A stretch of DNA of 64,000 nt from positions 1,408,001-1,472,000 of the forward strand of contig CAWIKF010000002.1 in the NCBI GenBank assembly GCA_963836755.1, written 5' to 3'. A program made the position numbers and the translations under genes. The stretch comes from an uncultured Verrucomicrobiae bacterium (lineage in GTDB: Bacteria; Verrucomicrobiota; Verrucomicrobiia; Chthoniobacterales; Chthoniobacteraceae). The notes under the pieces were generated by a model. The model ran no database searches, was not told the DNA's origin, and saw only the letters and a list, made by a program, of their open reading frames with translations. Shown here one piece after another: positions 20,929 to 60,491 of the stretch (position 1 is the first letter of the stretch; each line of letters begins with the position of its first letter).

Positions 20929-20978
20929 GCCTAACCATGCGCTGCAGCGACGGCTGCGGCTGTCACGCTGGCTGCTCC
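20929..20978 (+). mobile_element. attC site 4, left half (interrupted by prophage)
   Basis: GCCTAACCATGCGCTGCAGCGACGGC...TGGCTGCTCC; complementary arm is at 60424-60491. Confidence 0.9.
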
Positions 20979-20997
20979 TGTAACCACGCGAAATTAT

Positions 20998-21067
20998 TGA
21001 AAAGGGTCGGAATGTGCGGCCTTGGTTCGTTATGAAAAGGGTGCGCGTCACGTCAAGTAAAAGGGTC
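20998..21067 (+). promoter_or_regulatory. Putative transposase-binding repeats, left end
   Basis: Three AAAAGGGT copies; inverted-like ACCCTTT (60304) and ACCCATTTCA (~60329) near the right end. Confidence 0.55.
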
Positions 21068-21072
21068 ATAAC

Positions 21073-21272
21073 ACCGCCGAAAGTAACGATGGCGGCCGGT
21101 CCGCGGAGACTCCGCGAGGCGTTCGCGGGAATAGCAGCGACTTCGAACCGCAAGCGGTTTATCCTCACTTGCGAGCGTTGCCCTTTCGCTTAGCCTTTTA
21201 ACTGCCGCGAGGGAGCCGGCAGTGGCTATTCCTTCAACGCCGGCCGGTGTGACTGATCCCGCACGTCCGGCC
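21073..21272. ncRNA. Candidate structured non-coding element
   Basis: Nested and serial helices over ~200 nt; no credible ORF. Confidence 0.4.
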
Positions 21273-21278
21273 ATTTCT

Positions 21279-21719
21279 TTACGAGTTCAGAAAAGCCCAG
21301 AGCGCCTGCAAAAATGCGCGTCCGGCGTCGTCGGGATGCTGGCTTACGCCTGCGCAAATTCCGCCGTCAGGCAGGTGCGACCCAAATGTCACGAGGAAGT
21401 CGTCGTCAAACGTCGGCTGCGTGCCTTCATGCGCGGCGATGATCGTGCCGCCTGCATCCGTCGTCTCCGGCACTTCGACGGGCGTCGAGCCGCTGACGTG
21501 AGCATTCTGCAACCAGTCGATGATGATCGGGAAATCCACTATCTGCGGCGATGGTGCCCATGCTTGCAGCCCGGCGACCATCTGCGGCCACGCCGTTTGC
21601 AGTTCCGTAGGCAGATCGGCGACAGCGACCGCGCGCGAGCGGTTGATCCCGTCGATGGTTTGATATGCCGCTGCGCTTTGACAGTTGGCGGCTATGAAAA
21701 TTTGTCGTGTCGTCTTCAT
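21279..21719 (-). CDS. Phage hypothetical protein after tail fibre
   Basis: 146-aa ORF overlapping the fibre stop by 4 nt. Confidence 0.65.
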   Translation of the reverse strand: MKTTRQIFIAANCQSAAAYQTIDGINRSRAVAVADLPTELQTAWPQMVAGLQAWAPSPQIVDFPIIIDWLQNAHVSGSTPVEVPETTDAGGTIIAAHEGTQPTFDDDFLVTFGSHLPDGGICAGVSQHPDDAGRAFLQALWAFLNS

Positions 21720-23335
21720 GGAACTTTTTGGAAAAAGATGAACGAACTTTTCCGCAGATAGACCGGGTTCGCCGCGTCAGTGGCCGAGCGCTGGGCAACT
21801 TGAAAATGAATCGTCGTCGATGAGCTGAAGACGAGCATCCCTTGCGAGACATCCAGAGCTGTCTTCTTAGGCGCGTCCGCAAATGGCTGGACGGCATATT
21901 GAGCCAAACTCGCTCCATAACGGAAATAAGTCGTCGCCAGCGAGGGATTGGCCGAAGCGGAGCCATTGTCCTGCGTCGTCGAGTTATAGATTTGGAAAAA
22001 ATAATCCGAGTCCGAGCATTCCGTCGTGAGACTTAGGAGCGTGTTTATTCCACCGGTCGTCGATGCGGTGTCCGCATGCACAATGCCGTAAAAACGATAA
22101 GTGCCTGCCGGCAGTGTGACAGTGTCGGTGCCGTCAACAAATGTCGTCGAGTTCGCCGAGAAATCAGCGCTGATGATCAGTTTGTAAAACACGCCAACCC
22201 GAGCATCGAGCTGCGCAGTCGTGATGAGATCGCTGCTCGCGGGCGTGACGCCGACTTGGTTGGGAGCCGTATTATGAGTGCCGCTCGCTACAATGTTTCC
22301 ACTCGCCGCGACGGGACCGTTGAGGTTGATCGTGCCGGTGCCGTTCGGCGACAAATTGATGTTGCCGTTGTTCCCGGTAGAGAGCGTGAAATTCCCGCTC
22401 GAATCGAACGCGCCCTGGATCGTCTTCGATCGGACCGTGGTGCCATCGCTGTCGATCTCGATCCAGTGGTTGTTGACGGCGACCATCTGCGAGTTCGCGA
22501 CGATCGTGCCGGCAGCCGCGTCCACCTTGCGGATCAAGCATTGAAAATTCGTGCCGAGATTTGCGGCCGTGTCGAGCGTGACGACGATGGAACTTGTCCC
22601 CGTGGTGACGTCGAAAACCGTTCCGCAATCAGCGGCCGCGACGGAGAAATTCGCCGACTTCGCGACATGCTTTGAAAACGGAGTTTTGAGATTCGTTCGA
22701 ACGGTCGCGACGTTGGAAAAATCGCTTCCGTTGTTGCTGGTGATGACGAGATTTGTCGGACTCGTGAACGCGGAAATCTGGCCGGCCGCGCCAATCGTGA
22801 CCGAGCCGTTGCCCACCGAAAAGGTGCCACTGAACGCCGTGTTGCTCACGTTGGAAAGACCGACTTTCGTTTTGCTCAAAGTCAGCCACGCGGGATCTGA
22901 ATAGCTGCCGGTGGAGACGACGAGGTTCGTCGGATTGGTAAACGCGGAAACCTGCCCGGCCCCGCCGATCGTGATGGAGCCGTTGCCTGCCGAATAGGTG
23001 CCGCTGAATGCGGTGTTGCTGACGTGTTCGAGACTGACCTGGCTCGCGCTCAAATTCCAGAGCCCGCTGCCGTCGCCAGCGACGCCGCTGAAAGTCACCC
23101 AGTCGCCACTTGGAGCGTTGCCGAGCGTGAGCTGCGTGTTACCGAGATCGAGAGAACCGGAGTTATTCGCGACCGCGTTAAGCTGGTCATTGGAAAGGAG
23201 CAAGCCGTTCGCACTTCCGAAAGTCGCGGCGTCCACCGGGCCTTTGATGAGGCCAGTGCCATCGACAGTGAGCGTCTTCGTCTGCGCCATCGCACAGACC
23301 GGAAGCAAAAGAAGAAAAAGTAATCGTTTAAACAT
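21716..23335 (-). CDS. Tail fibre / receptor-binding-like protein with signal peptide
   Basis: Gly/Ser/Thr-rich, duplicated ~40-aa block, end of tail module; starts MFKRLLFLLLLPVCAMAQ. Confidence 0.7.
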   Translation of the reverse strand: MFKRLLFLLLLPVCAMAQTKTLTVDGTGLIKGPVDAATFGSANGLLLSNDQLNAVANNSGSLDLGNTQLTLGNAPSGDWVTFSGVAGDGSGLWNLSASQVSLEHVSNTAFSGTYSAGNGSITIGGAGQVSAFTNPTNLVVSTGSYSDPAWLTLSKTKVGLSNVSNTAFSGTFSVGNGSVTIGAAGQISAFTSPTNLVITSNNGSDFSNVATVRTNLKTPFSKHVAKSANFSVAAADCGTVFDVTTGTSSIVVTLDTAANLGTNFQCLIRKVDAAAGTIVANSQMVAVNNHWIEIDSDGTTVRSKTIQGAFDSSGNFTLSTGNNGNINLSPNGTGTINLNGPVAASGNIVASGTHNTAPNQVGVTPASSDLITTAQLDARVGVFYKLIISADFSANSTTFVDGTDTVTLPAGTYRFYGIVHADTASTTGGINTLLSLTTECSDSDYFFQIYNSTTQDNGSASANPSLATTYFRYGASLAQYAVQPFADAPKKTALDVSQGMLVFSSSTTIHFQVAQRSATDAANPVYLRKSSFIFFQKVP

Positions 23336-23342
23336 AAGAAAA

Positions 23343-24005
23343 TCAGGCTTCGCCGGCTGCGATCGAGAACGTCTCCGCTCCGGCCGCGCCGGAGACTGTG
23401 ATGGTGTGGAAAAGGCTTTGATCCGCGTTCCAGAGCTGCCAACTCCCATCGTCCTTTATCCGGTATTTTCCCGCGACCGTTTTGAGCGCGAGCGCGCCGG
23501 GCAATGGATAAGGCGGATCACCATCCGCATCCGCGCCTTCTGTGCCTTGATAGACGCGTGCTTTGCCGAGCACCGGAAATTCATAGCTGAGCCGCTTTGT
23601 ATTGCCGGCGTTCTGAACTTGGATTTCCGCAAGCACCTGCACGGGATCGGTCGCGGCGGCGGTGAGGAAAGCGGAGACGTTGAGATCGAGATCGGCCTCG
23701 TAGTAGTATTCCCCGTCACTCTGCGTTTCGGTAAACGGCGTGGCTGAAAAAAAACTAGCACCCGTGAGAGCATCAGCCTCCTTGCCATTGAGCACGATCT
23801 GATCGCCGGCATCGATCTGAGCGCCGACCAGCGGGCCGCCTGGCTCCGTTGGCTCATCGCAAAGGTGGACGCGCAGCGTGAAGTGGTCGCCCGGAATCCA
23901 AGTGATTGTGTCGCGCGGCGTCTGGTCGGCCTTGCTGACAACGAGCGGGTTATCCGAGCCTTTGCTCTTGCGCACGAAAATCTCAAAAAGAAGGGCAAAA
24001 GCCAT
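23343..24005 (-). CDS. Putative tail-tip protein
   Basis: Beta-rich acidic ORF upstream of fibre; late-promoter motif fixes ATG 24005. Confidence 0.55.
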   Translation of the reverse strand: MAFALLFEIFVRKSKGSDNPLVVSKADQTPRDTITWIPGDHFTLRVHLCDEPTEPGGPLVGAQIDAGDQIVLNGKEADALTGASFFSATPFTETQSDGEYYYEADLDLNVSAFLTAAATDPVQVLAEIQVQNAGNTKRLSYEFPVLGKARVYQGTEGADADGDPPYPLPGALALKTVAGKYRIKDDGSWQLWNADQSLFHTITVSGAAGAETFSIAAGEA

Positions 24006-24069
24006 TACAAAGCGCAGAGCATGCACGCCGGCGTTCATCGCCGCACGCGACGGTGCGAATGGGGCGAAC

Positions 24070-24360
24070 TTAGCGCGTGAGCCGGTTCAACGCGTCGCGC
24101 CGATTTGCGCAGTCGCTGCCGGCGATAAGCGTCCCCGTTTTGTCCAGGCACGGGAGGTGGAGCAGTTTCGCGAGCGGCTTGGCCAGGATTTCAATCGCAT
24201 CGCCGAGGCCCATCTTTTCACAGTCGCGCGAATATTTTCCCCAGCCTGAGACCTTGCAGCTCGCGCATGGATCGCGAAAGAAATCGGGCTCATGCGCGCA
24301 GCCAACTCGCGCGCACATATCTGCGCGGATGTGCGCAACGGTCGCGGGCATCGTTCTCAC
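24070..24360 (-). CDS. Small Cys-rich phage protein
   Basis: GLGD...C..RR..LN pattern seen in phage tail regions. Confidence 0.6.
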   Translation of the reverse strand: MRTMPATVAHIRADMCARVGCAHEPDFFRDPCASCKVSGWGKYSRDCEKMGLGDAIEILAKPLAKLLHLPCLDKTGTLIAGSDCANRRDALNRLTR

Positions 24361-25100
24361 AGCGGGCTCCCGTTCGGTTTGAGATCAGGATCGGGCCGCG
24401 TGCTGCCGTGATCGTTGTCCACTGGATCGTCCGGCTCATAGCCTTTGACGCAGCTCCATTTCTTGATGTCGTAAAACAGATTCCCGTTTGCATCGGGCTC
24501 AGTCAGCTCGGGCAGATCGTGAGAGATCAGGTTTGCGACATCGCCGGCGCCCTTTGTCGGATCTGGCCAGCATGGGTTTCCTGTGCCGTTCCATTCGTAG
24601 GTGTCGATGTCGGTGAGCTCGTCGGGTCCGCCATCGTCGCGGACAAACCGGCTGCGGATCCAGATTTTCAAAAAGCAATCCGATGCCGGCGCGTGCTGAA
24701 GTTTTCCTTTTGTCCGTTTAATTGAGTAACTGTAGTCACCATCAGGAAGTTCTCGGGAAGCAAAGCAACCGCCTGTGAATGTTCCAGGATAGTCAGGAAG
24801 ATCATCGACTGTCTTTGAAATCAGCGTCGCCGTGAGATAAGGCTCCGAATAAATGGTGCTGGGCGGATCTCCGGTGGGACCTCCGGTTGTATAAACAACG
24901 GTCGTGCCAGTTCCGTCATCATGGTAGGTTGTCGTCCTAATGTTTCCGGCGCCGTCATAGTAAGTCTCGACCGTCCATTCAGCAAAAACTCCGTCTTGAT
25001 ACGCAGAGATGCCAATCTTTGTTCGCGATGCACTGATGCTGTCGCAGACGATGTTCCAGTCGCACTGAATGGCGGAGCAGTTTCCGCACGGCGCGATCAT
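24357..25100 (-). CDS. Putative minor tail protein
   Basis: Acidic 247-aa ORF coupled to neighbours by 4-nt overlaps. Confidence 0.6.
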   Translation of the reverse strand: MIAPCGNCSAIQCDWNIVCDSISASRTKIGISAYQDGVFAEWTVETYYDGAGNIRTTTYHDDGTGTTVVYTTGGPTGDPPSTIYSEPYLTATLISKTVDDLPDYPGTFTGGCFASRELPDGDYSYSIKRTKGKLQHAPASDCFLKIWIRSRFVRDDGGPDELTDIDTYEWNGTGNPCWPDPTKGAGDVANLISHDLPELTEPDANGNLFYDIKKWSCVKGYEPDDPVDNDHGSTRPDPDLKPNGSPL

Positions 25101-25741
25101 GCTGCCTCGTAGCTGCCGAAGGTGTATGTCCAGGCCGCATCATCATCCTTGTCCACATCGCGATTGCGGCAGGCGATCACAAGTTGGGAGCCGATGCCTT
25201 TCGTGCCGCTGCCGATCGCGACGGAGGTATCGCCGCTCGCGTCAAAATCACCTAGCGGGATGCAAAGCTTCGTGCCGCTATTTGCGGGGATTGTAGCACC
25301 TTCGTTGATCTCGATGTCGGTGACTTGCGGTGCGTCACCAGAGTTGTCGATCGTGAGCTCGATCCAGGCGAAATTGTCGTCATTGGCGACTTCGTCCTCA
25401 TAGGGAGGATCGCCGCCGGCCGTCATGCCGCTCGGCAATCCCGTAAGTCCGCTGGCTAGAGTCAGCGCGCCTCCCACGGCGATCAGCCCGTTTGAAACGC
25501 CGATCTTTTTAGTGACGCTGCCGCCGGTTTTTGTCGAGGCGTCGGAAAGCGCAAAGCTGTTGAGCACGGCTGCCGCGCCACGCCCTGGTTGGACCCGGAG
25601 TTGATGAGTGGTTCCACCAGCGCCGACAGACGGCATGATGTCCGGACTTGGGCGGGGGTAGAATGAACGAAGCAGCGCATTGACCTGCCCCGCCCAGCGC
25701 GGCACATCCTCCCAGCGCGTTGGGATGGTGGGCAGTTGCAT
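25097..25741 (-). CDS. Putative minor tail protein
   Basis: Starts MQLPTIP directly after the upstream stop. Confidence 0.6.
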   Translation of the reverse strand: MQLPTIPTRWEDVPRWAGQVNALLRSFYPRPSPDIMPSVGAGGTTHQLRVQPGRGAAAVLNSFALSDASTKTGGSVTKKIGVSNGLIAVGGALTLASGLTGLPSGMTAGGDPPYEDEVANDDNFAWIELTIDNSGDAPQVTDIEINEGATIPANSGTKLCIPLGDFDASGDTSVAIGSGTKGIGSQLVIACRNRDVDKDDDAAWTYTFGSYEAA

Positions 25742-25743
25742 CT

Positions 25744-26478
25744 TTAGCTGTCCGCGTAGAGATCGGTGTCCCAAAGCGTCGCGCCGGTCCACTCTTGCAC
25801 CCGTGTCCACGTCCGGTCGCGCGTGGCGCGATCTGCCGTCTTCAAATAAATATAGCCATTCACCTTGCAGCCGGAGGGTGGATCGTTGCGCAGCCCGCAT
25901 TCCGAAACATCGGGCTTGCTCGCGTGTTTTGTAGTAACCCTGCACAGCGGCGAGTAGATGACAAAGCTGTCCGTGCCGTGCTTGAGCTTGTCCACGAAAT
26001 CCGTCGCGTTTCCGCTCACCCCGCTATTGCTCGTGAGCTTTGCGTAAGCCGCCGTGCGCAAGCTCGCAGACGCAGCGTTTTTCCATTCTTCGATCGCATC
26101 GAGATCGGCGTCATTGAGCGCTTTTGCTCCTCCATCGAGGTAGCGCGGATGTGTCTCGAGCTTCTTTTGAACTTCGATCCACTCCACTTCGAAAACCGCA
26201 TTGGTATCAAACGTGTAGTCCTGGATCGGCGCTGGCGTCATCGTCACCGTCATGGTGCCGGTGCCACCGGGACCTTTCTCGACGCGCACCGTATCGACAA
26301 AATAAGTCGATGCCACGCCCGAGATGTTTGAAAGGCGCGCCGGCAGGTTTCCCATGATCGCCGTGTAAGGCCCCTTGTAAATTAGCGTGTAGCGAGGCCC
26401 TTCCTTGCTCGTTTCAAAGAGCCGCGAGTTGGCCTGCTCTTTGACATCCGTGGTTCCTTTCCAGCGTGCAGTGGGCAT
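25744..26478 (-). CDS. Putative distal tail protein
   Basis: First gene after the tape measure gene. Confidence 0.6.
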   Translation of the reverse strand: MPTARWKGTTDVKEQANSRLFETSKEGPRYTLIYKGPYTAIMGNLPARLSNISGVASTYFVDTVRVEKGPGGTGTMTVTMTPAPIQDYTFDTNAVFEVEWIEVQKKLETHPRYLDGGAKALNDADLDAIEEWKNAASASLRTAAYAKLTSNSGVSGNATDFVDKLKHGTDSFVIYSPLCRVTTKHASKPDVSECGLRNDPPSGCKVNGYIYLKTADRATRDRTWTRVQEWTGATLWDTDLYADS

Positions 26479-26481
26479 GGC

Positions 26482-28278
26482 TTAGACGGCGCTCCACTCG
26501 GGAAGACCGGCGGGAGTGATGCGCGCGCCGATCACTTGCACGAAGGTGGCAAACTGTTTGACGAGCTGGCCGGTATTTTCAGCAGTCTTGCGCGCATGAT
26601 CATTTGCAGGGCCGCCAGCGCCTATGAAACCGCCGATCTTTGAAAGGCGATCGCCTTCCTCGAAACGGCCTTTGCGCGCAGGTGAGCCGGAATAATCCTT
26701 CACATTGGCGAGGCCGCCGCCTTTGACTGCGGGCGGCTCTTTGACGCCGGGCGGGAGCGATTTTTGCAGTTCCGTCCAAAGCTTGCTGAGCCTTTCCTGC
26801 AACTCCTTTGGCGCGGTCATGAACACTTGTTTAAATCCATCGTCCCACGCTTTTTTGAGCGCGGCGGGATCGATGTATTTTGCCGCGAGCACTTCTTTCA
26901 AATGCTCGCCAGCCTTGCGGAAAGATTCGCCGGCAGTGTCCTTGTAACTGGAAATAATGTCATCGAGCGGGCCGCCCTTTTGCAGCATGTAGTTGTAGCG
27001 GTCGCCCACGTCCGGTTTGCCAAACGCGACGCCGGCCGCGGCATCGGATTTCTTGTGCACCTCCGCGTATTGATCCTGCAAATCGAAGTAGGTCTTATCC
27101 ATCGTGGGCCGCTTCCCGATGGCTTTTTGAAGCTGCTCCATCTGCGCCTGGTAGCCGTCAAATTCCGTTTTTGCGCGGCTCTTCATCGGGTCGATTTTCC
27201 CCTGGCTCAACGTCGCCACCGATTGCTCAACCTCCGCCTCGAGCGCCGCGATCGGGCGCTTGAAAGCGGTCATCAACACGGCCTCCACTCCGGAGAATGC
27301 GGCCTTGATCATTTCGCCCACGCTCGACCAGAAATCGCCGTCGCTGAGGATCGCCATTCCTTCGGCCACCGCCTCCTGCATGACGTTGATTTCGCCCGCC
27401 CATGCGCGCGTTAAAAAATCCATCCCTTCCGCAAAGCCAACCTGCAAGCTCAAGCTGAGCAGCTCCGAAAGTTTTCCATTGTTAAACGCCGCGTAGAGCG
27501 TCTTCACGGCCCCGCCCAGCGCCTCTCCGAAGCCAGTCAGGTTGATTGATTTGAGCTTGTCGAGCAGCGGCAAAAGCACCGGCGCCACCTGCTCTGCAAA
27601 GCCGGCAAAGAAGCCTTTGACCTTTGCGCCCAGCGCCTCGAAACCGTTGGCAACCTTTGTAAAAATCTCCGCGTTGCGCTGCATGATGGTGCCCATGCCG
27701 CCGGCGAGTTGCGTAGCTTCCTTAATTGCATCGGGCTTGCCGAAGAGGTTCAGCATGTCCGCACCGCCGCGCCCAAAGATTGCCTTGATCGCCGCCATCT
27801 TGGTTGATTGATCGCCCAGGCCGTTGATCGCCTGGCCGATCGCCTCAAACTGCTCCGCCGCGCTTTTGCTTTTCAGGCTCTCCATGTCGAGCCCGAGCTG
27901 GTCGAAAATTTTCTTAGTCGGCTGCCCTTCCTCATTCACGCCGCCGAGCGCCGCCTGCATCATCGCGAGGTTCGCAGTCAAGTTGCCCGCATCCATTCCC
28001 GCCTCGCTATAGGCTTTTCGTAAGATGACCAGGTCGCGAATGCTCTGGCCCGTGGTTCGGCTTTGCGCGCCGAGCTCCTTGCCGGCGTCGAAGATTCCCT
28101 TGAGCCCCTCCGTAAAACCTTCGGCGCTTTTGAAGGCGGCGAAACTCACGCCGATCACGCCCAGGATGCCGGTCAGTTTTTCCGCCACGCCGCGAAAGCT
28201 TTCCATGCCACGCTTCGCCCCCTCGAGCGGGTTCATAAAACCGGCGCTGTTGAGCGTCATCGTGGCGGCGAGATTCAT
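26482..28278 (-). CDS. Tail tape measure protein
   Basis: Ala/Gly-rich helical 598 aa with FDQLGL and AIFGRGGADML patterns. Confidence 0.85.
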   Translation of the reverse strand: MNLAATMTLNSAGFMNPLEGAKRGMESFRGVAEKLTGILGVIGVSFAAFKSAEGFTEGLKGIFDAGKELGAQSRTTGQSIRDLVILRKAYSEAGMDAGNLTANLAMMQAALGGVNEEGQPTKKIFDQLGLDMESLKSKSAAEQFEAIGQAINGLGDQSTKMAAIKAIFGRGGADMLNLFGKPDAIKEATQLAGGMGTIMQRNAEIFTKVANGFEALGAKVKGFFAGFAEQVAPVLLPLLDKLKSINLTGFGEALGGAVKTLYAAFNNGKLSELLSLSLQVGFAEGMDFLTRAWAGEINVMQEAVAEGMAILSDGDFWSSVGEMIKAAFSGVEAVLMTAFKRPIAALEAEVEQSVATLSQGKIDPMKSRAKTEFDGYQAQMEQLQKAIGKRPTMDKTYFDLQDQYAEVHKKSDAAAGVAFGKPDVGDRYNYMLQKGGPLDDIISSYKDTAGESFRKAGEHLKEVLAAKYIDPAALKKAWDDGFKQVFMTAPKELQERLSKLWTELQKSLPPGVKEPPAVKGGGLANVKDYSGSPARKGRFEEGDRLSKIGGFIGAGGPANDHARKTAENTGQLVKQFATFVQVIGARITPAGLPEWSAV

Positions 28279-28447
28279 GTGGCGGCCTCCAGTCTGGCCG
28301 GATTCCCAGCGTGCGCACGCGACGCCGCGAATGATGCGCGCGCGGGCCCACCTCGCGCAAAATGGCGATGCTGGCCAGCCTCGCTTTTTCCGGCGATAGC
28401 CGCCGGGCAGTTATCGCCAGAAAAAGCGATGCGTGCGATCGAGAAGT

Positions 28448-28954
28448 TTACCGGCGCAGCGGAGTGGCCGGGATCGCGGCCGTGAGATCGAAGCGCATCA
28501 CGTAGCCGACCGTGGGCAGCTCAAAGGCGAGCTCCGGGCTTGGAAACGGTTTGCAACCTTTGTAAAACAACCGTCCGTAGGTGAAGTCCTCCGGAAACGC
28601 CAGGCTCCGCACCCGCGCGCGCAGATCGGCGAGAAGTTTCAAAAACGCCGGGTCATCCTTCGTCCCTTTGACCAGGCTTTCACCGGGGTTGATCCGCATT
28701 CCCTTTGCCTTGATGAGCCAGACCTCGAAATGGTTGTCCACAATGCCGGCTTCCTCATGCCCGGCCTGGTCGTCATCACCCGACCAGCAAAGCGTGACAC
28801 GGAAACTCTTCGGCGCATCAGCCAGGCTTTCGAGGACGTCGCCCGGATCGCCGGCGATCGAGATAACGCCTTTGCGCGGCGTGCACCAGGAAGTGAGATC
28901 GGACTGCAAATGCACGAGCAGCCCGGCGGGATCGGGTGTGAAGTCAGTTTGCAT
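28448..28954 (-). CDS. Putative tail terminator (Mu gp37-like)
   Basis: Size, position and alpha/beta pattern only. Confidence 0.5.
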   Translation of the reverse strand: MQTDFTPDPAGLLVHLQSDLTSWCTPRKGVISIAGDPGDVLESLADAPKSFRVTLCWSGDDDQAGHEEAGIVDNHFEVWLIKAKGMRINPGESLVKGTKDDPAFLKLLADLRARVRSLAFPEDFTYGRLFYKGCKPFPSPELAFELPTVGYVMRFDLTAAIPATPLRR

Positions 28955-29702: not shown

Positions 29703-29708
29703 CGCGCG

Positions 29709-30254: not shown

Positions 30255-30255
30255 G

Positions 30256-50032: not shown

Positions 50033-50036
50033 ATGG

Positions 50037-51323: not shown

Positions 51324-51387
51324 AAGGGCATTCGATTCCCGCTTCTGACGATTCTCCGACACTTCTCCCCTTAACTTTTTCATAGAC

Positions 51388-52383: not shown

Positions 52384-52871
52384 AGTTCCGGCGCCTACTT
52401 CCTTCCCTTGGAGTAGCTGCATTCGGAGGAATCTGTGGCTGGTATTTGCTTCCTCTGGTCGCTGAAAAAACGACGACTGACGCCCTGAAATTATCGGCTG
52501 TGATTTTCACTCTATCCGCCGCTTTTTTTTGGCAGTTGGTGAGAGAGTTTAAACAACTGCGCGCCACGGCTATGACCATGGACCCGCTTCGGCATCGGAA
52601 ACTTCTTGCCCGGATTACAGAGGTTCGCCGGAGAAGCTGGACCAAGTTTTTTCTGGGTGCCTCGGCTACGATCGCTATTGCCGTAACTGCATTTCTGCCC
52701 CATTCGCGTATTTTGCTCGCGATAGGCGGCGCCGCATTTTTTTTGGTGCTGTGGAGCTTTTTCTCCCTGCTCTTGAATTACTTTACGATCGAAAAACAAA
52801 CGGAGCGGTTTGACGAAGAAGAAAGAGAGCGGGATCGCCGCGATAAGTTCCTGCACGGAATCTCCGGCTAG
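52380..52871 (+). CDS. 4-TM membrane protein, possibly RexB-like
   Basis: Two hydrophobic hairpins in 163 aa; GTGA overlap. Confidence 0.6.
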   Translation: MKFRRLLPSLGVAAFGGICGWYLLPLVAEKTTTDALKLSAVIFTLSAAFFWQLVREFKQLRATAMTMDPLRHRKLLARITEVRRRSWTKFFLGASATIAIAVTAFLPHSRILLAIGGAAFFLVLWSFFSLLLNYFTIEKQTERFDEEERERDRRDKFLHGISG

Positions 52872-53062
52872 AAAAAGCGCCGTAGGATCACCGCAGTCAG
52901 CTCCGCGTTTGCAGCGAGGGCTTTTTGCAGGCGCTCCCGCGTGGTCAGCTTTGCCGGCGCATTGAACGGGTTGTGGTCGCTATCGACCATCTCCCAAAGC
53001 GCGCGGTTGAATGCCTCCACCTGCTCGAGCGCAGCGGCGGGACTAATGACATCTTTTTCCAA
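52868..53062 (-). CDS. Small hypothetical protein
   Basis: 64-aa helical ORF. Confidence 0.4.
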   Translation of the reverse strand: MEKDVISPAAALEQVEAFNRALWEMVDSDHNPFNAPAKLTTRERLQKALAANAELTAVILRRFF

Positions 53063-53171
53063 AGCACGGTTGTTTTACACTTGTAGAGAGGGCAAAGCAA
53101 GGTGCTCTTTCCGCAGCATTCGCGCGGTGAAATGACGGCACGGCAGGGCGCGGGCAAGCTGGCTTTTTTGC

Positions 53172-53504
53172 ATGGCATTCAATCCGGAATTTTCAATCGG
53201 CTCCATCGCCGCCATTGGCACATCCCTCCTCGGTTACGGGATGGTTCTCTTGCGGGTCGGCACCTTTAACGGAGTTTCAATCCAGCGCTTTGAAACAAAC
53301 GCCCTCGCGATCAACGAGGTGAAGGCCGACGTGGATGCGCTGCGCAGTGAGCGCGACGCGGCCACGAACAATTTGCGCGAGGAAATCCGCTCTCTCAACA
53401 CCTCCATCTCCGCCGCGCTCCAGGACAACGCGCGCGCGATCGGCCGACTCGAGGGCGCAAACGACCTCGCGAAGCAAATCGCCCAATCCCTGCGCCACTC
53501 ATGA
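53172..53504 (+). CDS. TM + coiled-coil protein (Mu gp25-like)
   Basis: Architecture and position before gp26-like gene. Confidence 0.6.
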   Translation: MAFNPEFSIGSIAAIGTSLLGYGMVLLRVGTFNGVSIQRFETNALAINEVKADVDALRSERDAATNNLREEIRSLNTSISAALQDNARAIGRLEGANDLAKQIAQSLRHS

Positions 53505-53764
53505 TAAGCGAACAGCAACGCCGTGAAGAATGCCGGCGCGAGGTGCGCGCTTTTTTGGTGCGGCGCCAGAAACTCGCCTTTTGCGCGGAATCCGTTCACC
53601 GCCGCTTGAAAATCGAAAACGATTTCTCGCTCGAGGAGATCGAACAGGCGCTCACGCTGCTCGCCGGGCTGGGGCAGTGCACCGCAACGCCGGAGGAGCT
53701 CGGCGCGACTTTGTTTTACCAGGCGACCAGCGCCGGTGTGCTGGCGGAGGAACGCGCGCAGTGA
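53501..53764 (+). CDS. Mu gp26-like winged-helix protein
   Basis: IEQALTLLAGLG...ATSAG. Confidence 0.6.
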   Translation: MISEQQRREECRREVRAFLVRRQKLAFCAESVHRRLKIENDFSLEEIEQALTLLAGLGQCTATPEELGATLFYQATSAGVLAEERAQ

Positions 53765-53991
53765 AAACGATTGTGTTACAACTCATCGGCGACCAGGCGG
53801 GGAACCTTTCAAGCATGCGCGCGGCGATGTTGCTCGGGCTCGTGATCGTGCTCGGCGCGTGGCTCGTCGTGAGCATCCACCAGCACGCGCTGCAAAACCT
53901 TCCCGACAACATTCTTTACCTCTTGATCGCGCTGATTAGCGGCAAGGCGGTGCAAAAATTCGGCGAAACGCCGCCTGTAAAACAACCGTAA
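53761..53991 (+). CDS. Putative holin
   Basis: SSMR start of 2-TM segment, GKAVQKFGE end. Confidence 0.65.
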   Translation: MKTIVLQLIGDQAGNLSSMRAAMLLGLVIVLGAWLVVSIHQHALQNLPDNILYLLIALISGKAVQKFGETPPVKQP

Positions 53992-53996
53992 CTATT

Positions 53997-54233
53997 ATGT
54001 CCAAAACCATTTCTGCCAGAGTCTCCGCACTGCTCATCGCGCTCGCTTTTTTTCTCGCGTGCCTTTTCGCGTTCCTGTTTTCCGGCTGCGCGGCGAGCTC
54101 GGCGGTCGATACCGATTTTCGCCGCAAGGTGCAAAGCGACACCACCAGCGTGAACGCCACCTATGACCCGCAGACCGGCGGCGCCGGCGGCCAGCTCACG
54201 AACACGATCATCTTTCGCGATCCATCCAAATGA
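53997..54233 (+). CDS. Small lipoprotein, possible spanin
   Basis: Hydrophobic stretch then FSGC; in lysis cluster. Confidence 0.55.
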   Translation: MSKTISARVSALLIALAFFLACLFAFLFSGCAASSAVDTDFRRKVQSDTTSVNATYDPQTGGAGGQLTNTIIFRDPSK

Positions 54234-54979
54234 ACTATTCCGCTCCGGTTTCCGTTTCCCACGATCACTTTGCCGCGGACTCGCTCCGGCTCGAGGCGGT
54301 GACAGTCTGCGTCGGCTTTGACGATCTGCTTGATGCCACGCTTGCGCTCAACACCGCGCACGTCGATCACTTCATCGTCGTAACTTCCCATGCGGACGTT
54401 GCGACACAGGCCGTCGCTCGCAAGCACAGCGCGACGTGCGTGCAGACCGATTTGTTCCAGAAAAACGGCCGGCATTTCAACAAAGGCGCGGCGATCAATG
54501 CCGGCTTCGACTATTTCCAATATCACGGCTGGCGTCTCCATCTCGATTCCGACATCGCGCTTCCGGATAACTTTCGCCGGGTGCTCTTTAATCACACGCA
54601 TCTTGAGCAAAGCTGCATCTACGGAGCTGACCGGCTCGACGTGATCGGCCTCGACGCTTTGGACGCGGCGCGCCGGCAGCCCCAGCACGCGCACGCGTGC
54701 CTGGTCGATCCGCAGCCGCGTTCGCTTTGCGCACGGTATGTCGATCCGCTGCGCGGCTATTGCCCAATCGGGTTTTTCCAGCTTTGGCATGCGCGCGCGC
54801 ACAAGCAATATCCGTGGAGCCTGGGCAGCGCCGCGCATGACGATGTGATGTTCAGCGCGGCATGGCCGCACGCCTGTCGCCGCTTGCTGCCGAGCGTGAT
54901 CGTCCAGCATCTTTGCGCCGCGCCTCCTCAATGGGGTGAGAATTGGGAAGGTCAGCGCCGCCAACCGCGCGTCGATTAA
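54230..54979 (+). CDS. GT-A fold glycosyltransferase
   Basis: FNKGAAINAG, LHLDSDI (DxD), GFFQLW, DD.F. Confidence 0.75.
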   Translation: MNYSAPVSVSHDHFAADSLRLEAVTVCVGFDDLLDATLALNTAHVDHFIVVTSHADVATQAVARKHSATCVQTDLFQKNGRHFNKGAAINAGFDYFQYHGWRLHLDSDIALPDNFRRVLFNHTHLEQSCIYGADRLDVIGLDALDAARRQPQHAHACLVDPQPRSLCARYVDPLRGYCPIGFFQLWHARAHKQYPWSLGSAAHDDVMFSAAWPHACRRLLPSVIVQHLCAAPPQWGENWEGQRRQPRVD

Positions 54980-54980
54980 A

Positions 54981-55580
54981 ATGAGTTTCGACATCGCGAG
55001 CCTGAGTCCGGAATACGTGCGGTTGTTTAACACCTGCCAGCCGCGCGACACGGCTGCGGTGGAAAAAATCGCCGCGCGCTTTCCTAGCGTCGCTTCCTAC
55101 TACGATGCCGCTTCCGTGCTGACCGGCGTGCCGGTGTATGTGATTTTTTTGCTTCATCACATGGAGTGCGATTTGTCGTTTTCACTTCACCTGCACAACG
55201 GCGACAGCCTGCGGCGCAAAACGGTGAATGATCCCGCGGGACGGCCTCCGGTGTGGGAGCCATCGGAGCCGCCGACGCATGAGGATTGGTCGCGTAGCGC
55301 AGTCGATGCCTTGCGTTACGACCGGCTCGATCAAATCAATCCCTGGGATGTCGCCGGCATCGCCTACGGCCTTGAGAAATTTAACGGATGGGGTTACCGC
55401 AGCCACGGAATCAACGATCCTTATCTTTGGAGCGGCTCCAACCATTACGAGCGCGGAAAATATGTTAGCGACGGCCATTTCGACCCTGACGCGGTGAGCT
55501 CGCAGGTCGGCGCGATGGTGGTTTTGGCGGCGCTCTGCAAATCCGACCTGGTCGCGCTGCCGGCAATTGCAATCCCATGA
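54981..55580 (+). CDS. Lysozyme-like endolysin
   Basis: HHMEC...HLHNGD, EKFNGWGY, PYLWSG..Y..GKYV.DG. Confidence 0.85.
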   Translation: MSFDIASLSPEYVRLFNTCQPRDTAAVEKIAARFPSVASYYDAASVLTGVPVYVIFLLHHMECDLSFSLHLHNGDSLRRKTVNDPAGRPPVWEPSEPPTHEDWSRSAVDALRYDRLDQINPWDVAGIAYGLEKFNGWGYRSHGINDPYLWSGSNHYERGKYVSDGHFDPDAVSSQVGAMVVLAALCKSDLVALPAIAIP

Positions 55581-55909
55581 ACCTCTCCGGCCTCGAGTCG
55601 CTTTCCATGATCGAGCTGCGGGACCTGGGCCTGCGTGTGCGCAACCTGCTTTCGCACCGCATCATGTCAGACCCCGACCACTCGATTGCAGCGTTGAATG
55701 GCTTGAAAGCGGAGGATCATCCCGCCGTGGAACCGGACCCGGTCATTTGCAGCGTGCTTGGCCGCGACTCGGGCTGTCCCTACTGCCGCGAGGCGAGTGT
55801 GAGCTCGACGCTTAGTTTTTTCATCGCCTCGCCGGCGCAGGGTGAAGATGGATCGCTTGCGGAGACGCGCAGCTATGGTTGCTCCCGCAATCATTGGTGG
55901 AACGCGTAG
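55577..55909 (+). CDS. Small hypothetical protein
   Basis: 110 aa with CPYC and C..H. Confidence 0.5.
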   Translation: MNLSGLESLSMIELRDLGLRVRNLLSHRIMSDPDHSIAALNGLKAEDHPAVEPDPVICSVLGRDSGCPYCREASVSSTLSFFIASPAQGEDGSLAETRSYGCSRNHWWNA

Positions 55910-55976
55910 CAAGGTTCGCAGGCTTTGCGCCGTCGCGTGACCGGTGCACAGACGCGTGCAAGGCTCCGCGCCGCAA

Positions 55977-56627
55977 ATGCCCATCACGCGCAAAGGTAAA
56001 ATCGCCCGGCTTCCGTTCGCCATTCGCGAGCAGGTCAACCAGCGCCTGCTCGACAACGAAAACGGGCCGCGGATCATCGCGTGGATCAATGGGCAATGCG
56101 AACTCAAGGGGAGCGCGGCGATCAATGATGGCAACCTGAGCGAGTGGCGCGCGGGAGGCTTCGCGGACTGGCTTGAAAAGCGCGACAAAGTCGAACGCAC
56201 AAAAGCGCTCGCCGAATACTCACTGCGCATCGCGGAGGCGGGCGGCGGATCGATGAACCTGCCCGCGGCCATCGCCGGCGGCCAGATCATGGAAGTGCTC
56301 GAGGAGTTTGATCCGAGCGTCTTGAAAGTGATGCTCGCGCAGAACCCGGCGGCGTGGATGGAAATCCTGGACAAACTTTCAAAGCTCCAGCGCAGCAACG
56401 CGGATGAAAAAGTAGCGGCGCAAAACGATGTAAAACTTTCGCAAAACGAGCGGAAGCTCGCGCTCGATGAAGCGCGCTTTCAGCGCACCACGTGCGAGCT
56501 CTTCGTCAAATGGGCCGCGCGCGAGGAGGCGCTGCGCATCGCGCTCGACAAGTCTCTCAAGCCCGACGTGCAGATCGAGGGGTTGCGCGCGCTGATGTTT
56601 GGAAAGGTGGAAAATGCCTCCACGTAA
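55977..56627 (+). CDS. Terminase small subunit (Mu gp27/DUF3486-like)
   Basis: RKGKIARLP.AIREQVNQRL. Confidence 0.78.
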   Translation: MPITRKGKIARLPFAIREQVNQRLLDNENGPRIIAWINGQCELKGSAAINDGNLSEWRAGGFADWLEKRDKVERTKALAEYSLRIAEAGGGSMNLPAAIAGGQIMEVLEEFDPSVLKVMLAQNPAAWMEILDKLSKLQRSNADEKVAAQNDVKLSQNERKLALDEARFQRTTCELFVKWAAREEALRIALDKSLKPDVQIEGLRALMFGKVENAST

Positions 56628-57639
56628 AACATCGCCTCGCCAAAAACGGCGAGAGGATCCCGCCGAGGTGGCGGCTGGGCCAAAAGGCGGTCGGCGGACG
56701 GGCGAGCCATCGCTGCAAAAGGCGATTGCAGCTGGCGCTGATATGACGCCGCTGATCGTCCATCGCATCTACCAGCGCGAGGTTTTCCGGCAACAGCTCC
56801 GCCGTCTGTTTTTGCTTTGGGCGCGGCAGACGGGAAAAAGTTTCACGCTCGCGAGCGAGGCACTCGACCTGATGATGGCGACGCCCGGCGCGCTCGTGAC
56901 TTTCATCTCCGCGAGCATCGTGCTCGGCACGGAAATCCTGCTCAAGGAAGTGCAGATTTGGATGAAGTTTCTCGCGCTTTACCGCGAGGCTGCGGCGCAC
57001 GCTGGACTGAAACTCACCAGCACCGCGGATGGCCTGGACATAGACGACGTGGCCGATCTTTTCGAGCACAGCAAGCTCGAGACAAAATTGTGGCACAGCA
57101 ATTCCACCTGCTCGCGCTCGCGCGTAATCGCCCCGAACCCCGACACAGCGGTCGGTTGGACGGCGCACATCATTGGCGACGAAGTCGGCCGCTGGCCGAA
57201 TGCGCAGGACGTTTTTGAAGCGGTGATCCCGTTCATGAAAAGCAACCGCGGCTTGAAACTGCGGCTCGCAACCACGCCGCCGCCCGATGACAAGCACGTC
57301 ACCTTTGAGTGGTTCCTGCCGCCGCAGGAGGACTTTCCGGTCAACGCCAAAGGCAACTGGTTCAAGGCGCCGTGCGGGATTATGACGCACCGGCTAGACG
57401 CTTGGGATGCGTTCGCGGCAGACGTGCCGGTGTTTCATCCCGACACCGGCGCGGAGATCACGCCGGAGGAAGATCGCGCGCTCGCCGCCGACAAATCGGC
57501 GTGGGATCGCAACAACGCGTTGAAATTTCTTGCCGGCGGCACCGCTGCGGTGAGCCTCGCCTCGCTGCAACGCGCGATGGCGGCCGGTCGTGGCTTTTGC
57601 CTGGGCATCAACATCACGGAGCCAGTGGTTTTCGCATGA
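56614..57639 (+). CDS. Terminase large subunit, ATPase half
   Basis: YQRE, WARQTGKS, IIGDE, LATTP. Confidence 0.88.
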   Translation: MPPRKTSPRQKRREDPAEVAAGPKGGRRTGEPSLQKAIAAGADMTPLIVHRIYQREVFRQQLRRLFLLWARQTGKSFTLASEALDLMMATPGALVTFISASIVLGTEILLKEVQIWMKFLALYREAAAHAGLKLTSTADGLDIDDVADLFEHSKLETKLWHSNSTCSRSRVIAPNPDTAVGWTAHIIGDEVGRWPNAQDVFEAVIPFMKSNRGLKLRLATTPPPDDKHVTFEWFLPPQEDFPVNAKGNWFKAPCGIMTHRLDAWDAFAADVPVFHPDTGAEITPEEDRALAADKSAWDRNNALKFLAGGTAAVSLASLQRAMAAGRGFCLGINITEPVVFA

Positions 57640-58070
57640 ACCGGTTTTTTGACATCGCCGGCGATCTCTCCCGGCAGCTCGCACCGTGGGAGCTGAAGCG
57701 GCTGGGCATCAATCCGAAATTCGCGCACTTCCAGCTCTGCGAAGTGATCCGTTTCCGCAGTGACATCGCCGGCGGCGTGGTCCGCGTGCCGCTCGGTTTT
57801 ATTTCCGACCTCGCGTCGATTCCGCAGTTCGCCTGGTCAATCTTTATGGCCGCAGATGATCCGCGCATCGAGCTGGGCGCATGGGTCCACGATCGCCTTT
57901 ATTCGCGGGCGGGAAAAATCGTCCTGGAGGACGGGACGCGCATCACGCTCACGCGCGAGGAAGCCGACCGCATTCTCACGGAGGAAGCGATGCCCGAGCT
58001 GGAAGCGACGACCTTTCAACGAGCCTCAGTTTACCGCGCCCTACGCTGGTTTGGAGACCGCTGGAAATGA
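57636..58070 (+). CDS. DUF1353-like protein
   Basis: VPLGFISDLASIP, VHDRLY, REEADRI, YRALRWFG. Confidence 0.85.
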   Translation: MNRFFDIAGDLSRQLAPWELKRLGINPKFAHFQLCEVIRFRSDIAGGVVRVPLGFISDLASIPQFAWSIFMAADDPRIELGAWVHDRLYSRAGKIVLEDGTRITLTREEADRILTEEAMPELEATTFQRASVYRALRWFGDRWK

Positions 58071-58747
58071 CCCTCTCGCACGTTTTACCCGCAAACTGGC
58101 GCGACGTCTTCACGCGCGATCATCGCCGGATCGGCATCGGCGTTGATCCCGCGACGACCACGAAAAAAAAGAGCAACCCGAGCGCGATCGCCGTGATCCA
58201 GCAAGTGGGCCTCAGCTATTTTGTGCGCATCCTTTTGCGTTTCAAAACGAGCGACGATCGTGTGACCACCGGCTTAATCCACGAGCTCGCACTCGAGCTT
58301 CCGCATGGGCTGAAGGTGCGCCGGGTTTGCATCCTCGCGACCAATGAGCGTTTCTACGCCGGCCAGCTCCGGCGTTCGCTCGCGGGGAAGGTGCCCGTGG
58401 AGGCCGTGATCGAAAGCGAGGCGACTCAATACCTGGGCGAGCAGATGACCGTGAAAGCGTATCTCGGCAACCAGCTCGTCAACACGATTGATGACGGCTA
58501 CCTGCCGCTGCCTGATGAGAAATGGGTGCAGTCTGATTTTCGGCAGGTGGATCGCGACAAGGGGACTTTCAACGCGGAGCCCGATGAGAACGGCAACCAC
58601 GCGGACGGGTTTTGCGCGACTGGCGCGGGCCTGCACGCGCTGATCGGCCGCGGAGGTCCGGCGCAGGCGCGCGCGGTGACGACCGGCAGCTTCGGCGGCA
58701 GGAAATCGAGCGGCGGCTGGAAGAACCCGTATTTTTCAAAATTCTAG
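58067..58747 (+). CDS. Terminase large subunit, nuclease half
   Basis: IGIGVD and GNHADGFCA.G.GLHA. Confidence 0.82.
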   Translation: MTLSHVLPANWRDVFTRDHRRIGIGVDPATTTKKKSNPSAIAVIQQVGLSYFVRILLRFKTSDDRVTTGLIHELALELPHGLKVRRVCILATNERFYAGQLRRSLAGKVPVEAVIESEATQYLGEQMTVKAYLGNQLVNTIDDGYLPLPDEKWVQSDFRQVDRDKGTFNAEPDENGNHADGFCATGAGLHALIGRGGPAQARAVTTGSFGGRKSSGGWKNPYFSKF

Positions 58748-58753
58748 AAAATC

Positions 58754-60301
58754 ATGCCTGACAAACCGCTCACCATCGCCCAGCGTCTGCGCGCTTTTTT
58801 CCTCGCAGAGGTCCCGACGCAAAAACGGACCGTTTACAATTTTCGCTCGGCGCCGCCGACGATCGCCACGTTGCTCGACGTCGATCGCATCCACGGAATT
58901 TTTGCGGATGCGGAGGCCGGCAACGTGCAGGACCTCTTTGCGCTTTACCGGGATATTCTGATGGCGGATTCGCACCTCCAGGGCGAGATGGCCAAACGCA
59001 AGCTCGCTGTGATCGGCGATCCTCTCAGCATCCAGCCGGCGGACAAAAACAATCCGCAGGATGTGGCAGATGCAAAGTGGCTCGACATGCAGCTCACGCC
59101 GCGCCCCGCCTGGTTCTTGCGCGCGTGCGCTCACCTGCTCGATTCCACGCTCTGGCCGGTGGCAGTCTGCGAAAAGGTCTTTGCACCGGCCGCGGGTGGT
59201 TACGTCTTACAACGGCTCGTGCCCGTGCCCGACCAGCTCATCGATTTCCGGCTCGGCAAGCTGATGCTGCGCGCTACCGATCCCGAGACCGGTTACCCGA
59301 GCGGCGACATTTTCGAAGCGGACCCGAACCGCTATGTGATCCACCGCGGGCATCTGCTATCCACTCCCGACAACTGGGGCGGCCCGATGCGCTCGCTTGT
59401 TTTCTGGTGGTTTTTTGCCGCGATGGATCGCGACTCCTGGGCGCGGTTTTTGGAACGCTACGGCTCGCCATTTTTGCTCGGCAAATATGAGCAGGCCGAT
59501 GATGACAGCCGCACGGTGCTCGAGCGCGCTTTTTCCAACGCGACCAAGCTTTTCGGCATCGTCATTTCAAAGGATACCGATGTGGAGCTCGTGCAGGCGG
59601 CCGCCGCGCCGACTGGCGAGGCTTTCGAAAAATTCCACGACATCGCATGCCGCGAAAAATCAAAGCTCATCGTCGGGCAGACGAGCGCGGAAACGACACG
59701 TTCCACCGGCCTCGGCTCGGGCGTTTCCAAGCAGCAGGAAAACGTGCGAAACGACATCCGCCAATTCGATGCGATGATGCTTTCGGCGACGATCATGGAG
59801 GGCGTTTTCACGCAGCTCTTGTTGATCAACGGCCGCAAAGGAAAGGTCCGTGCCGTATGGGGTGCGGAGGATGCGCAAGTCAGTTCCCAGCTCGCAAAGA
59901 TGCTTTCCGATCTCGCGCAGGCCCAGCTCGGCGTGGCGGATGCGTCGTTGCCGCTACTCTCCGAACGGCTCGGCTTCCAGTTGCAACGGATCGCACCGCC
60001 GGCATCGCCTCAACCTTTCAGCGTGCCGCATCATTTGCTTGCCTTGGGCGCGGCCTCTCCGACGCGGGTCGAAAATGCTCTGTCTCAGATCGCCGGCCAA
60101 GGCGCCGCGGAAACGGCGCGGCAGTTCCGCCGATCCTACGCGCCGATCCGGCGGTTGATCTCGACCAGCGCGACGCCGGAGGAAGTAATTGCGGGCGTGC
60201 GGGATTTTACCTTGGGCTGGCCTGCCGAGGAGGCTGCCGGAATTTTGCTTGAGGCGTTGACTTCATTCGCGGCTAATGGAGCAATCATCACAGATCGGTA
60301 A
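58754..60301 (+). CDS. Portal protein (Mu gp29/DUF935)
   Basis: DSHL....KRKLAV, WARFLERYGSPF..GKY, SKLIVGQT. Confidence 0.92.
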   Translation: MPDKPLTIAQRLRAFFLAEVPTQKRTVYNFRSAPPTIATLLDVDRIHGIFADAEAGNVQDLFALYRDILMADSHLQGEMAKRKLAVIGDPLSIQPADKNNPQDVADAKWLDMQLTPRPAWFLRACAHLLDSTLWPVAVCEKVFAPAAGGYVLQRLVPVPDQLIDFRLGKLMLRATDPETGYPSGDIFEADPNRYVIHRGHLLSTPDNWGGPMRSLVFWWFFAAMDRDSWARFLERYGSPFLLGKYEQADDDSRTVLERAFSNATKLFGIVISKDTDVELVQAAAAPTGEAFEKFHDIACREKSKLIVGQTSAETTRSTGLGSGVSKQQENVRNDIRQFDAMMLSATIMEGVFTQLLLINGRKGKVRAVWGAEDAQVSSQLAKMLSDLAQAQLGVADASLPLLSERLGFQLQRIAPPASPQPFSVPHHLLALGAASPTRVENALSQIAGQGAAETARQFRRSYAPIRRLISTSATPEEVIAGVRDFTLGWPAEEAAGILLEALTSFAANGAIITDR

Positions 60302-60423
60302 CAACCCTTTCTCCCGAAGCCGCTCATACCCATTTCAAACATTTCGCTAACAGGCTTCCACGGCTGCTTCCTCCGACCATTTCCGAGCAGGTCAGGCTAT
60401 ATCCGCCATTTCTCTCGGTCTAA

Positions 60424-60491
60424 CTCCGCCGCCTTCGCCCGCGCAGCCATCGCGCCAGCCTCCGCCGTCGCTGAGCTTGGGGTCGTTAGGC
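60424..60491 (+). mobile_element. attC site 4, right half
   Basis: GCAGCCA..CAGCC..GCCGTCGCTGAGCTTGGGGTCGTTAGGC pairs with 20929-20978. Confidence 0.9.

Follow-up and report, generated by a model that had tools for sequence, protein, structure and literature searches.

A Mu-like prophage splits an integron attC site in an uncultured Verrucomicrobiae bacterium: a likely insertion hotspot of one MuB lineage

INTRODUCTION

Transposable phages exit their hosts by replicative transposition and packaging (PMC5977238) and duplicate a short target on insertion, which is 5 bp in Mu and 6 bp in B3 and in the Leptospira prophages, for which non-canonical termini are also reported (PMC8705779). Bent or mismatched targets speed the MuA transposase (PMC5357137) and, as described for phage Ab30, 5% of insertions fall beside palindromes of bacterial interspersed mosaic elements (BIMEs) without selection (PMC5977238). 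Integron attC sites attract other mobile elements, with the IS1111-attC elements and group IIC-attC introns being described as monophyletic subsets that insert in attC (PMC3001079), and integrons have been found inside phage genomes (PMC9892861), a Shewanella case being P2-like and not Mu-like (PMC8541194). This study concerns a 64,000-nucleotide stretch (i.e. the window; G000:C2:1408001-1472000, where G000 is the genome and C2 its contig) from an uncultured Verrucomicrobiae bacterium, in which a Mu-like prophage lies inside an attC site of an integron cassette array. Literature searches returned neither a report of Mu-like prophages in attC nor one of Mu-borne integrons. Positions given without a prefix are those of the window.

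RESULTS

The prophage lies between the two halves of one attC site

Joining the sequences on either side of the prophage (20929-20978 and 60428-60491) produced an attC site of 114 nt, termed attC4, whose bottom strand was predicted to fold into a single hairpin of -46.1 kcal/mol as compared to -33 to -40 for the intact neighbouring sites. The rebuilt site contained R''/R' and L''/L' boxes resembling those of its neighbours, an extrahelical base and a bottom-strand hairpin within the 57-141 nt expected of attC. When the left half was combined with each of 29 right halves from the genome, the true partner folded best (rank 1/29; next -44.4 and -37.9). The target duplication was CTCC, a 4-bp repeat at the two junctions (Table 1), and an intact sister attC at C2:1283059 has the junction sequence with one CTCC only. 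Cassettes were present both upstream and downstream of the prophage. The fold, the pairing rank and the sister site confirm what had been proposed in an earlier note on this DNA, namely that the two halves rebuild a full attC, while the attC finder and gene families confirm its statement that cassettes continue on either side. The prophage-split attC is real. The same note's description of a whole Mu-like prophage in the attC loop also stands, with the extent refined to the limits in Table 1.

The host array (C2:1426801-1479942) has the form of a CALIN (i.e. at least two attC sites and no intI nearby). An intI elsewhere in the genome had been suggested as a check, and one was found: the sole IntI above the cut-off (C2:765056-766015; 474 bits) is intact, retains its catalytic residues in an alignment, has its own array and lies 663 kb away. 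About 67 attC-like sites were located on C1 and C2, in many scattered arrays and singletons, with this one intI. GC skew was flat and assigned no replichore orientation to the array.

Family-wide duplications and insertion sites

The portal gene adjoins one end of the prophage, and portal-based searches therefore reach insertion sites. A survey of 182 portal loci, 150 of which had at least 100 bp past the portal, was performed with ends called by position weight matrices (PWMs) first and duplications checked afterwards. An exact 4-bp duplication was observed in 12 of 17 elements with both ends; the other five pairs exhibited a 5-bp duplication (one pair, with ends on different contigs and an unsure pairing), a 30-bp overlap (G003) or no duplication (three pairs). 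The prophage and its family thereby depart from the 5- or 6-bp duplication of Mu-like phages. No paper describing a transposable phage with a 4-bp duplication was found in the open literature, subscription journals and supplements lying outside the search. Two flanks were recovered for one phage, whose sequence is identical in both over 389 nt up to its last base; these flanks were variants of one REP-like (repetitive extragenic palindromic) repeat. At three loci (L044, L135 and L174) the insertion lay no more than about 35 bp from the 3' end of a tRNA gene, often at a hairpin, and at L119 the flank is tRNA-like by eye only. Five near-identical left ends in G496 (L248, L255, L258, L259 and L260) start with CG, not TG, and all have different flanks.

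Three further prophages split attC sites

Three independent relatives were also found in attC. In G265, from the same genus (portal, 47%; MuA, 55-59%), both halves of an attC from another subfamily were recovered, split at nt 62-65 of 123 and flanked by an ACAC duplication. The L185/L126 element is followed by a 76-nt attC right half at the head of an array of intact sites, and the degenerate end of L125 abuts the left half of an attC oriented the other way. Three of the four cases are thus oriented one way and one the other. Counted from the attC start, the junctions lie at about 39-65 nt in every case, within the variable middle of the site and clear of the R and L boxes.

These three attC-split prophages came from 96 other non-redundant portal clusters, a conservative count as many of the clusters stop short of host DNA. 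Between 0.008 and 0.22 attC insertions were expected among the 96, giving a probability for three or more of 7.5e-8 (uniform insertion) to 1.5e-3 (intergenic only with threefold more unseen attC), values that are guides and not tests because kin are not independent and arrays assemble poorly. The right-half pattern used for counting attC finds 29 of the approximately 67 sites in G000 and gave 59 matches in 47 other host genomes. Insertion of this lineage in attC is probably not due to chance.

Insertion in attC follows MuB

Trees of MuB were built after dropping the long-branch rows G938, G523 and G930. In the 28-row tree, this prophage, G265, L185, L125 and G048 formed a clade of five (support 100/97), whose insertion sites comprise four attC sites and one REP, with G048 being inserted between REP-type hairpins with a CTTT duplication. 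Portal distances among this prophage, G265 and L185 were 1.5-1.8, about as far as the median pair (1.77), and the L185 MuA is only 29% identical to that of this prophage. Conversely, G085 and L117 have a MuA near that of this prophage (53% and 61%) and a MuB outside the clade, and both are inserted in genes. No row outside the clade with a known flank was in attC (0/12; Fisher p = 0.007 with the present case left out), a contrast that is weak because hosts outside the clade are mostly without attC and kin share hosts.

A MuB scan of viral contigs (30 loci) returned as its top three the records of L126, L125 and one more, which is probably the G265 element. No new member of the MuB clade was detected in the out-of-sample genomes, and a tblastn search with MuB gave no match among 50,697 INPHARED phage records. 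Scanning viral contigs for an end-plus-attC pattern produced no matches, and a left-end pattern produced one, which looks unrelated.

Several observations weigh against a preference for attC. Most relatives insert outside attC (uvrA and other genes, intergenic DNA, REP-like repeats or behind tRNAs), and 34 of 48 host genomes had no match to the attC pattern. The numbers are small, and the present case was itself ascertained. Among the 44 other clusters whose end was called by PWM, a single one is in attC; the L185 and L125 ends are weak (scores of 9.3 and 3.6) with one junction each, and none of 14 extra left-end flanks contained an attC half. The left end in G457 is outside attC in a genome with 13 attC matches. 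Rebuilt targets folded better than shuffles in only three of seven cases (z of -6.4, -2.0 and -1.4), two of which were indistinct from flank windows, such that a general hairpin bias across the family was not shown. Taken together, these data point to a hotspot of one lineage and not to strict targeting, and some form of attC targeting by one MuB lineage is considered likely. The earlier suggestion that the phage may target attC hairpins has accordingly gained three further independent attC-splitting prophages, all of the same MuB clade, but most relatives insert elsewhere, and clean 4-bp duplications imply a duplex target and not a folded single strand.

A proposed mechanism and its rivals

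The explanation favoured with moderate confidence is ordinary MuA/MuB transposition by a Verrucomicrobiota Mu-like lineage that prefers as its target the middle of long imperfect palindromes, mainly those of attC. In Mu chemistry, a clean duplication with both halves in order needs concerted attack on opposite strands of a duplex. As both halves and a clean duplication are kept here, the target at strand transfer was presumably duplex DNA; attack on a folded single strand would be expected to leave a different scar. The likeliest attractor would be the middle of the palindrome, where supercoiled duplex would be flexible and partly melted prior to cruciform formation. MuA would favour such bent or mismatched duplex, and this variant of MuB may bring the transpososome to the palindrome centre. 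The lysogen would survive because the insertion harms no gene, and the insertion would also immobilise the GNAT cassette.

Random insertion without targeting, in which lysogens survive best in dispensable non-coding DNA and the MuB lineage happens to infect attC-rich hosts, is unlikely. Most flanks are indeed intergenic, REP or tRNA-proximal, the host holds its many attC-like sites in scattered arrays, hosts outside the MuB clade are mostly without attC, and one relative (L052) ends 1.0 kb from attC, apparently in a cassette rather than a site. Even in this attC-rich genome, however, attC makes up only 0.23% of the sequence. Allowing a tenfold safe-haven weight, the probability of three or more in four is 5e-5, and it is still 0.017 if all insertions are placed within arrays (approximately 17% attC, a rough estimate). 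The shared position of the four junctions, clear of the R and L boxes, also argues against random placement.

The main mechanistic rival is guidance by a palindrome-bound protein (e.g. gyrase, IntI, a nucleoid or a hairpin-binding protein) that recruits MuB or makes it stall, in the way that TnsD/TniQ act on TnsC. This version, which is judged improbable, is consistent with an association that tracks MuB and not MuA or portal, and with Ab30, for which hotspots are described at a constant distance (55-61 bp) from the REP motif and gyrase binding at BIMEs is noted (PMC5977238). Against it, the distance to the R boxes varies over more than 10 nt from case to case, no gene of the prophage was recognisable as an adaptor, and the effect would have to work alike at attC and REP, which share shape and not sequence.

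The earlier note had proposed that the integron integrase provides an exit route that a transposable prophage normally lacks. Selection of the phage to sit in attC because IntI can excise a 40.5-kb cassette is very improbable. The unit itself was found as described: the GNAT cassette, prophage and cassette 5 form one attC3-attC5 unit of 40,538 bp with both border sites intact. The host IntI retains its catalytic residues and G265, itself in attC, carries its own intI. Nevertheless, any insertion inside a cassette would give the same outcome, and no TGTTC-N4-GAACA box was found within one mismatch near intI. Neither an empty attC4 nor an attC3 x attC5 junction, both proposed as checks, was present among the matches listed for the public contigs of three runs (X1-X3), of which X2 and X3 cover almost none of the stretch. 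For excision, both sites must be folded simultaneously, and its frequency, as reported for one site pair, fell approximately 20-fold, from 1.17e-3 at 60 bp to 5.25e-5 at +3,000 bp, with 3 kb being the longest length tested (PMC5371416). The prophage repressor carries an S24 peptidase domain, and replicative transposition gives the phage its own way out. The IntI route is hence geometrically possible but unsupported, the phage does not need it, and excision by IntI would be at most a rare curing event of the host.

Joining of two attC repeats across a phage contig during assembly can be discounted, for although attC sites are repeats and both the G003 overlap and three end pairs without duplication could hint at misjoining, the attC4 halves are best partners among 29, the duplication has the 4-bp length of the family, the prophage is single-copy within a 2.25-Mb contig, and an X1 contig crosses the left junction (20685-20999) without differences, albeit reaching just 21 letters into the phage and coming from a run that may be the source sample.

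Relatives carry integrons of their own

At least eight loci of relatives carry a phage-borne integron with intI, attI and inverted cassettes, namely in G265, G003, G048, the IMG/VR records G930 and G938, and three short contigs of G482 and G483. An intI was present in three of the four relatives first read whole, G085 being without one, and in 2 of 32 viral records searched. In six of the eight loci intI lies directly before the MuF or neck gene; G938 and G482:C26 do not show that neighbour. The window prophage has no integron, only a 15-bp gap at the matching locus (Table 1). Two of the five members of the MuB clade carry intI; none was found in the 27-kb partial record of L185, and the L125 record stops at MuB.

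Alignment of the phage IntI proteins showed that the catalytic residues and the IntI-specific insertion are kept. Seven of the eight form a separate long-branch clade (support 100), and the G265 protein scored 261 bits on TIGR02249, just below the cut-off of 265. In all eight loci ACTGTT lies a short way ahead of the intI start and the sequences diverge beyond this motif, marking a putative attI. In the four arrays checked, R'' matched the preceding core perfectly at nine of ten cassette borders and with one mismatch at the tenth, and matched its own R' at none, a pattern that is the scar of circular cassette insertion. The cassette genes run in the direction of the early operon, antisense to attC. 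As a separate observation, attC was noted elsewhere inside related prophages, in the portal-end or portal-protease interval (L171 and G514:C22:235355-235453).

Architecture of the prophage and neighbouring features

The features of the prophage and array are given in Table 1. The left terminus starts with TG and the right ends with AA instead of CA. Termini of relatives vary (CA, AG, GT, CG and others), and AA falls inside that range; a phage-killing mutation is therefore unnecessary as an explanation of it. A right end at 60352, at a CA inside the end repeats, was rejected as it is out of register and gives no duplication. The AAAAGGGT motif was also observed at the ends of relatives.

All of the recognised genes for MuA, MuB, Gam, repressor, portal, MuF, protease, capsid, neck and tape measure are open frames. 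The minus-strand set also includes ParB-like genes, and several tail and lysis-region genes had no family match in PHROG or Pfam. A portal as last gene before the end was found in many relatives. The prophage looks whole because this order and a split terminase recur in G085, G048 and G003; a rearranged or misassembled gene order was rejected as the order is common to these three, and a terminase frameshift was rejected as relatives likewise have two frames. The predicted fold of MuB resembles that of Mu MuB (predicted local distance difference test, pLDDT, of 91.6; top Foldseek match 8xvb), while the single-sequence MuA model was unusable (pLDDT 38.6), and phmmer searches of the PDB with single MuA or MuB sequences gave no match.

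No second MuA or MuB was found elsewhere in the genome. A candidate second Mu copy at C2:1.81-1.85 Mb was rejected, having only tail genes in common and no MuA or MuB. This region (G000:C2:1806000-1849000) is a non-Mu prophage-like region beside dnaK/groEL that shares two tail genes with the prophage (73% and 91% protein identity), the homologues of the tail-fibre-region genes lying at C2:1846418-1848423.

Other features of the prophage were also noted. An exact 30-bp direct repeat with an internal hairpin occurs upstream of protease I (33992-34021) and at the terS/terL border (56634-56663), even though protease I and the terminase genes face opposite directions. The DUF1353 gene (57309-58070) lies between the terminase halves; G265 has a gap of similar size there, and G085 and G048 have almost none. 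MuF (35624-37213) is fused to a C-terminal PI3/PI4-kinase-like domain (PF00454) and the G265 MuF frame is 1059 aa, which suggests a variable C-terminal MuF cargo. The block from repressor to tail is inverted in G265 relative to this prophage, G085, G048 and G003. Outside the prophage, a second attC of the same array looks split (61963-63660): its left half lies near 61963 and what remains of its right half near 63641-63660. The interval contains a gene of about 346 aa on the minus strand (62100-63140) and a tandem repeat of 41 bp (63263-63462). A gene with repeats resembling this 346-aa gene sits directly upstream of the split attC of G265.

Table 1. Positions of the prophage, attC sites, cassette genes and phage-borne integrons
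Feature	Position	Strand	Evidence
attC1, intact	18801..18918	+	structure-based attC finder; fold
attC2, intact	19593..19715	+	structure-based attC finder; fold
attC3, intact; left border of 40,538-bp attC3-attC5 unit	20286..20403	+	attC finder; fold
GNAT acetyltransferase cassette gene, own attC split	20418..20915	+	PF00583 E=1.5e-13
attC4 left half (R'', L'', 5' arm); 20975-20978 is the left CTCC copy	20929..20978	+	sequence, fold, pairing
Complete Mu-like prophage, 39,445 bp, GC 0.589	20979..60423	.	PHROG, Pfam, end register
Tail-side end: TG terminus and three AAAAGGGT repeats (putative MuA binding sites)	20979..21075	+	sequence
Two probable tail-fibre-region genes (from position)	21279..23449	-	
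Tape measure protein	26482..28278	-	PHROG 9483 E=5e-13
gp36 adaptor, major capsid gpT, Z-like structural protein, protease I	30256..33726	-	PF07030, PF10124, PF10123; PHROG 1731
Neck protein G and MuF-like head morphogenesis protein	34892..37213	-	PF05069, PF04233
15-bp gap, MuF start to conserved 131-aa open reading frame (37229-37624)	37214..37228	.	sequence comparison with relatives
Gam-like end protection protein	42463..43260	-	PF07352 E=1e-11
MuB target-capture ATPase	44726..45712	-	PHROG 296; PDB profile match 8xvb; top Foldseek match is MuB filament; trees
MuA-like transposase, family-wide acidic D/E/E motifs intact	45961..47733	-	PHROG 310 E=9e-11; alignment
CI-like repressor (helix-turn-helix and S24 peptidase)	49382..50032	+	PF01381, PF00717
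Putative terS-like gene, terminase ATPase half, DUF1353 gene, putative second terminase half	55944..58747	+	PHROG 2; PF07087
Mu-type portal, last gene before end	58754..60301	+	PF06074 E=6e-61
Portal-side end repeats; terminus in register with other end	60302..60423	-	PWM score 15.9
Right CTCC copy (60424-60427) and attC4 right half (3' arm, L', R')	60424..60491	+	sequence, fold
DUF6881 cassette gene (cassette 5)	60508..60813	+	PF21812
attC5, intact; right border of attC3-attC5 unit	60824..60941	+	attC finder; fold
Phage-borne integrons, early operon	G265:C28:18808-21100; G003:C18:17090-18930; G048:C38:16779-18600; G930:C1:8572-10800; G938:C1:27000-29382		

DISCUSSION

A bias that tracks MuB across mosaic genomes provides a natural test of the part played by MuB in target choice. 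A practical consequence concerns detection, as searches built on TG-CA ends and 5- or 6-bp scars will miss this whole family with its 4-bp duplication and relaxed ends.

A lineage found repeatedly in attC, with relatives carrying what looks from its sequence like a working integron, is a concrete and testable vehicle for cassettes. It is tentatively suggested that a Mu-like lineage with an attC-homing MuB and its own integron could act as a cassette shuttle, which would land in arrays, package neighbouring cassettes in a variable end or capture them at attI (inverted and read by the phage early promoter), and seed new hosts. If true, cassettes would have a dedicated phage vector carrying them from one sedentary integron to another, and the lineage would provide the first DDE transposition system directed to attC. 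Such a system bears on how cassettes travel between the chromosomal integrons of different species and on the origin and breakage of scattered arrays that lack an integrase.

Comparison with known systems

The prophage resembles Mu/B3-like phages in its adjacent genes for a DDE transposase A (MuA-like) and an AAA+ protein B (MuB), its Gam and end repeats, its Mu-type head genes (Portal_Mu, Phage_Mu_F, Mu-like_Pro, Mu-like_gpT and Gp36, i.e. portal, MuF, protease I, gpT and adaptor) and its length of 39 kb, within the 35-40 kb of such phages. The second catalytic position is D in the MuA of Mu but E in 27/27 MuA rows of this alignment. The prophage also differs in its split terminase, in having a terS-terL-portal block at one end (a separated block being described in some Leptospira groups), in the relaxed terminal dinucleotides of its family and in a 4-bp duplication as compared to the 5 bp of Mu and the 6 bp reported for B3 and Leptospira (PMC8705779).

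The Pseudomonas saltoviruses Ab30 and 2P1 are alike in that insertion is described as mostly dispersed with hotspots at palindromic repeats, accounting for 5% of events; their insertions lie 55-61 bp beside the repeat (PMC5977238), whereas here the insertion is inside the palindrome centre and the repeat is an integron attC. The IS1111-attC elements and group IIC-attC introns likewise form monophyletic subsets of mobile elements inserting in attC, but are described as inserting near the attC 5' end, in one fixed orientation and by non-DDE chemistry (PMC3001079). The present element, in contrast, is a 39-kb DDE phage of a lineage whose attC insertions occupy the central loop in either orientation and duplicate the target, and whose specificity is not strict. 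An attC specialist would use a fixed position and orientation almost exclusively, while these insertions are spread over 39-65 nt and the fifth member of the clade is in a REP.

The integrons of relatives share with those described in phages the presence of intI, attI and attC arrays inside phage genomes. The latter are reported as captured host pieces or CALINs, with three complete among 10,705 genomes (PMC9892861), whereas those found here have their own IntI clade (7/8), a fixed early-operon locus and cassette genes antisense to attC. Overall, the prophage works like Mu with a BIME-type hotspot, while departing from two textbook features of the Mu family, its termini and the length of its target duplication.

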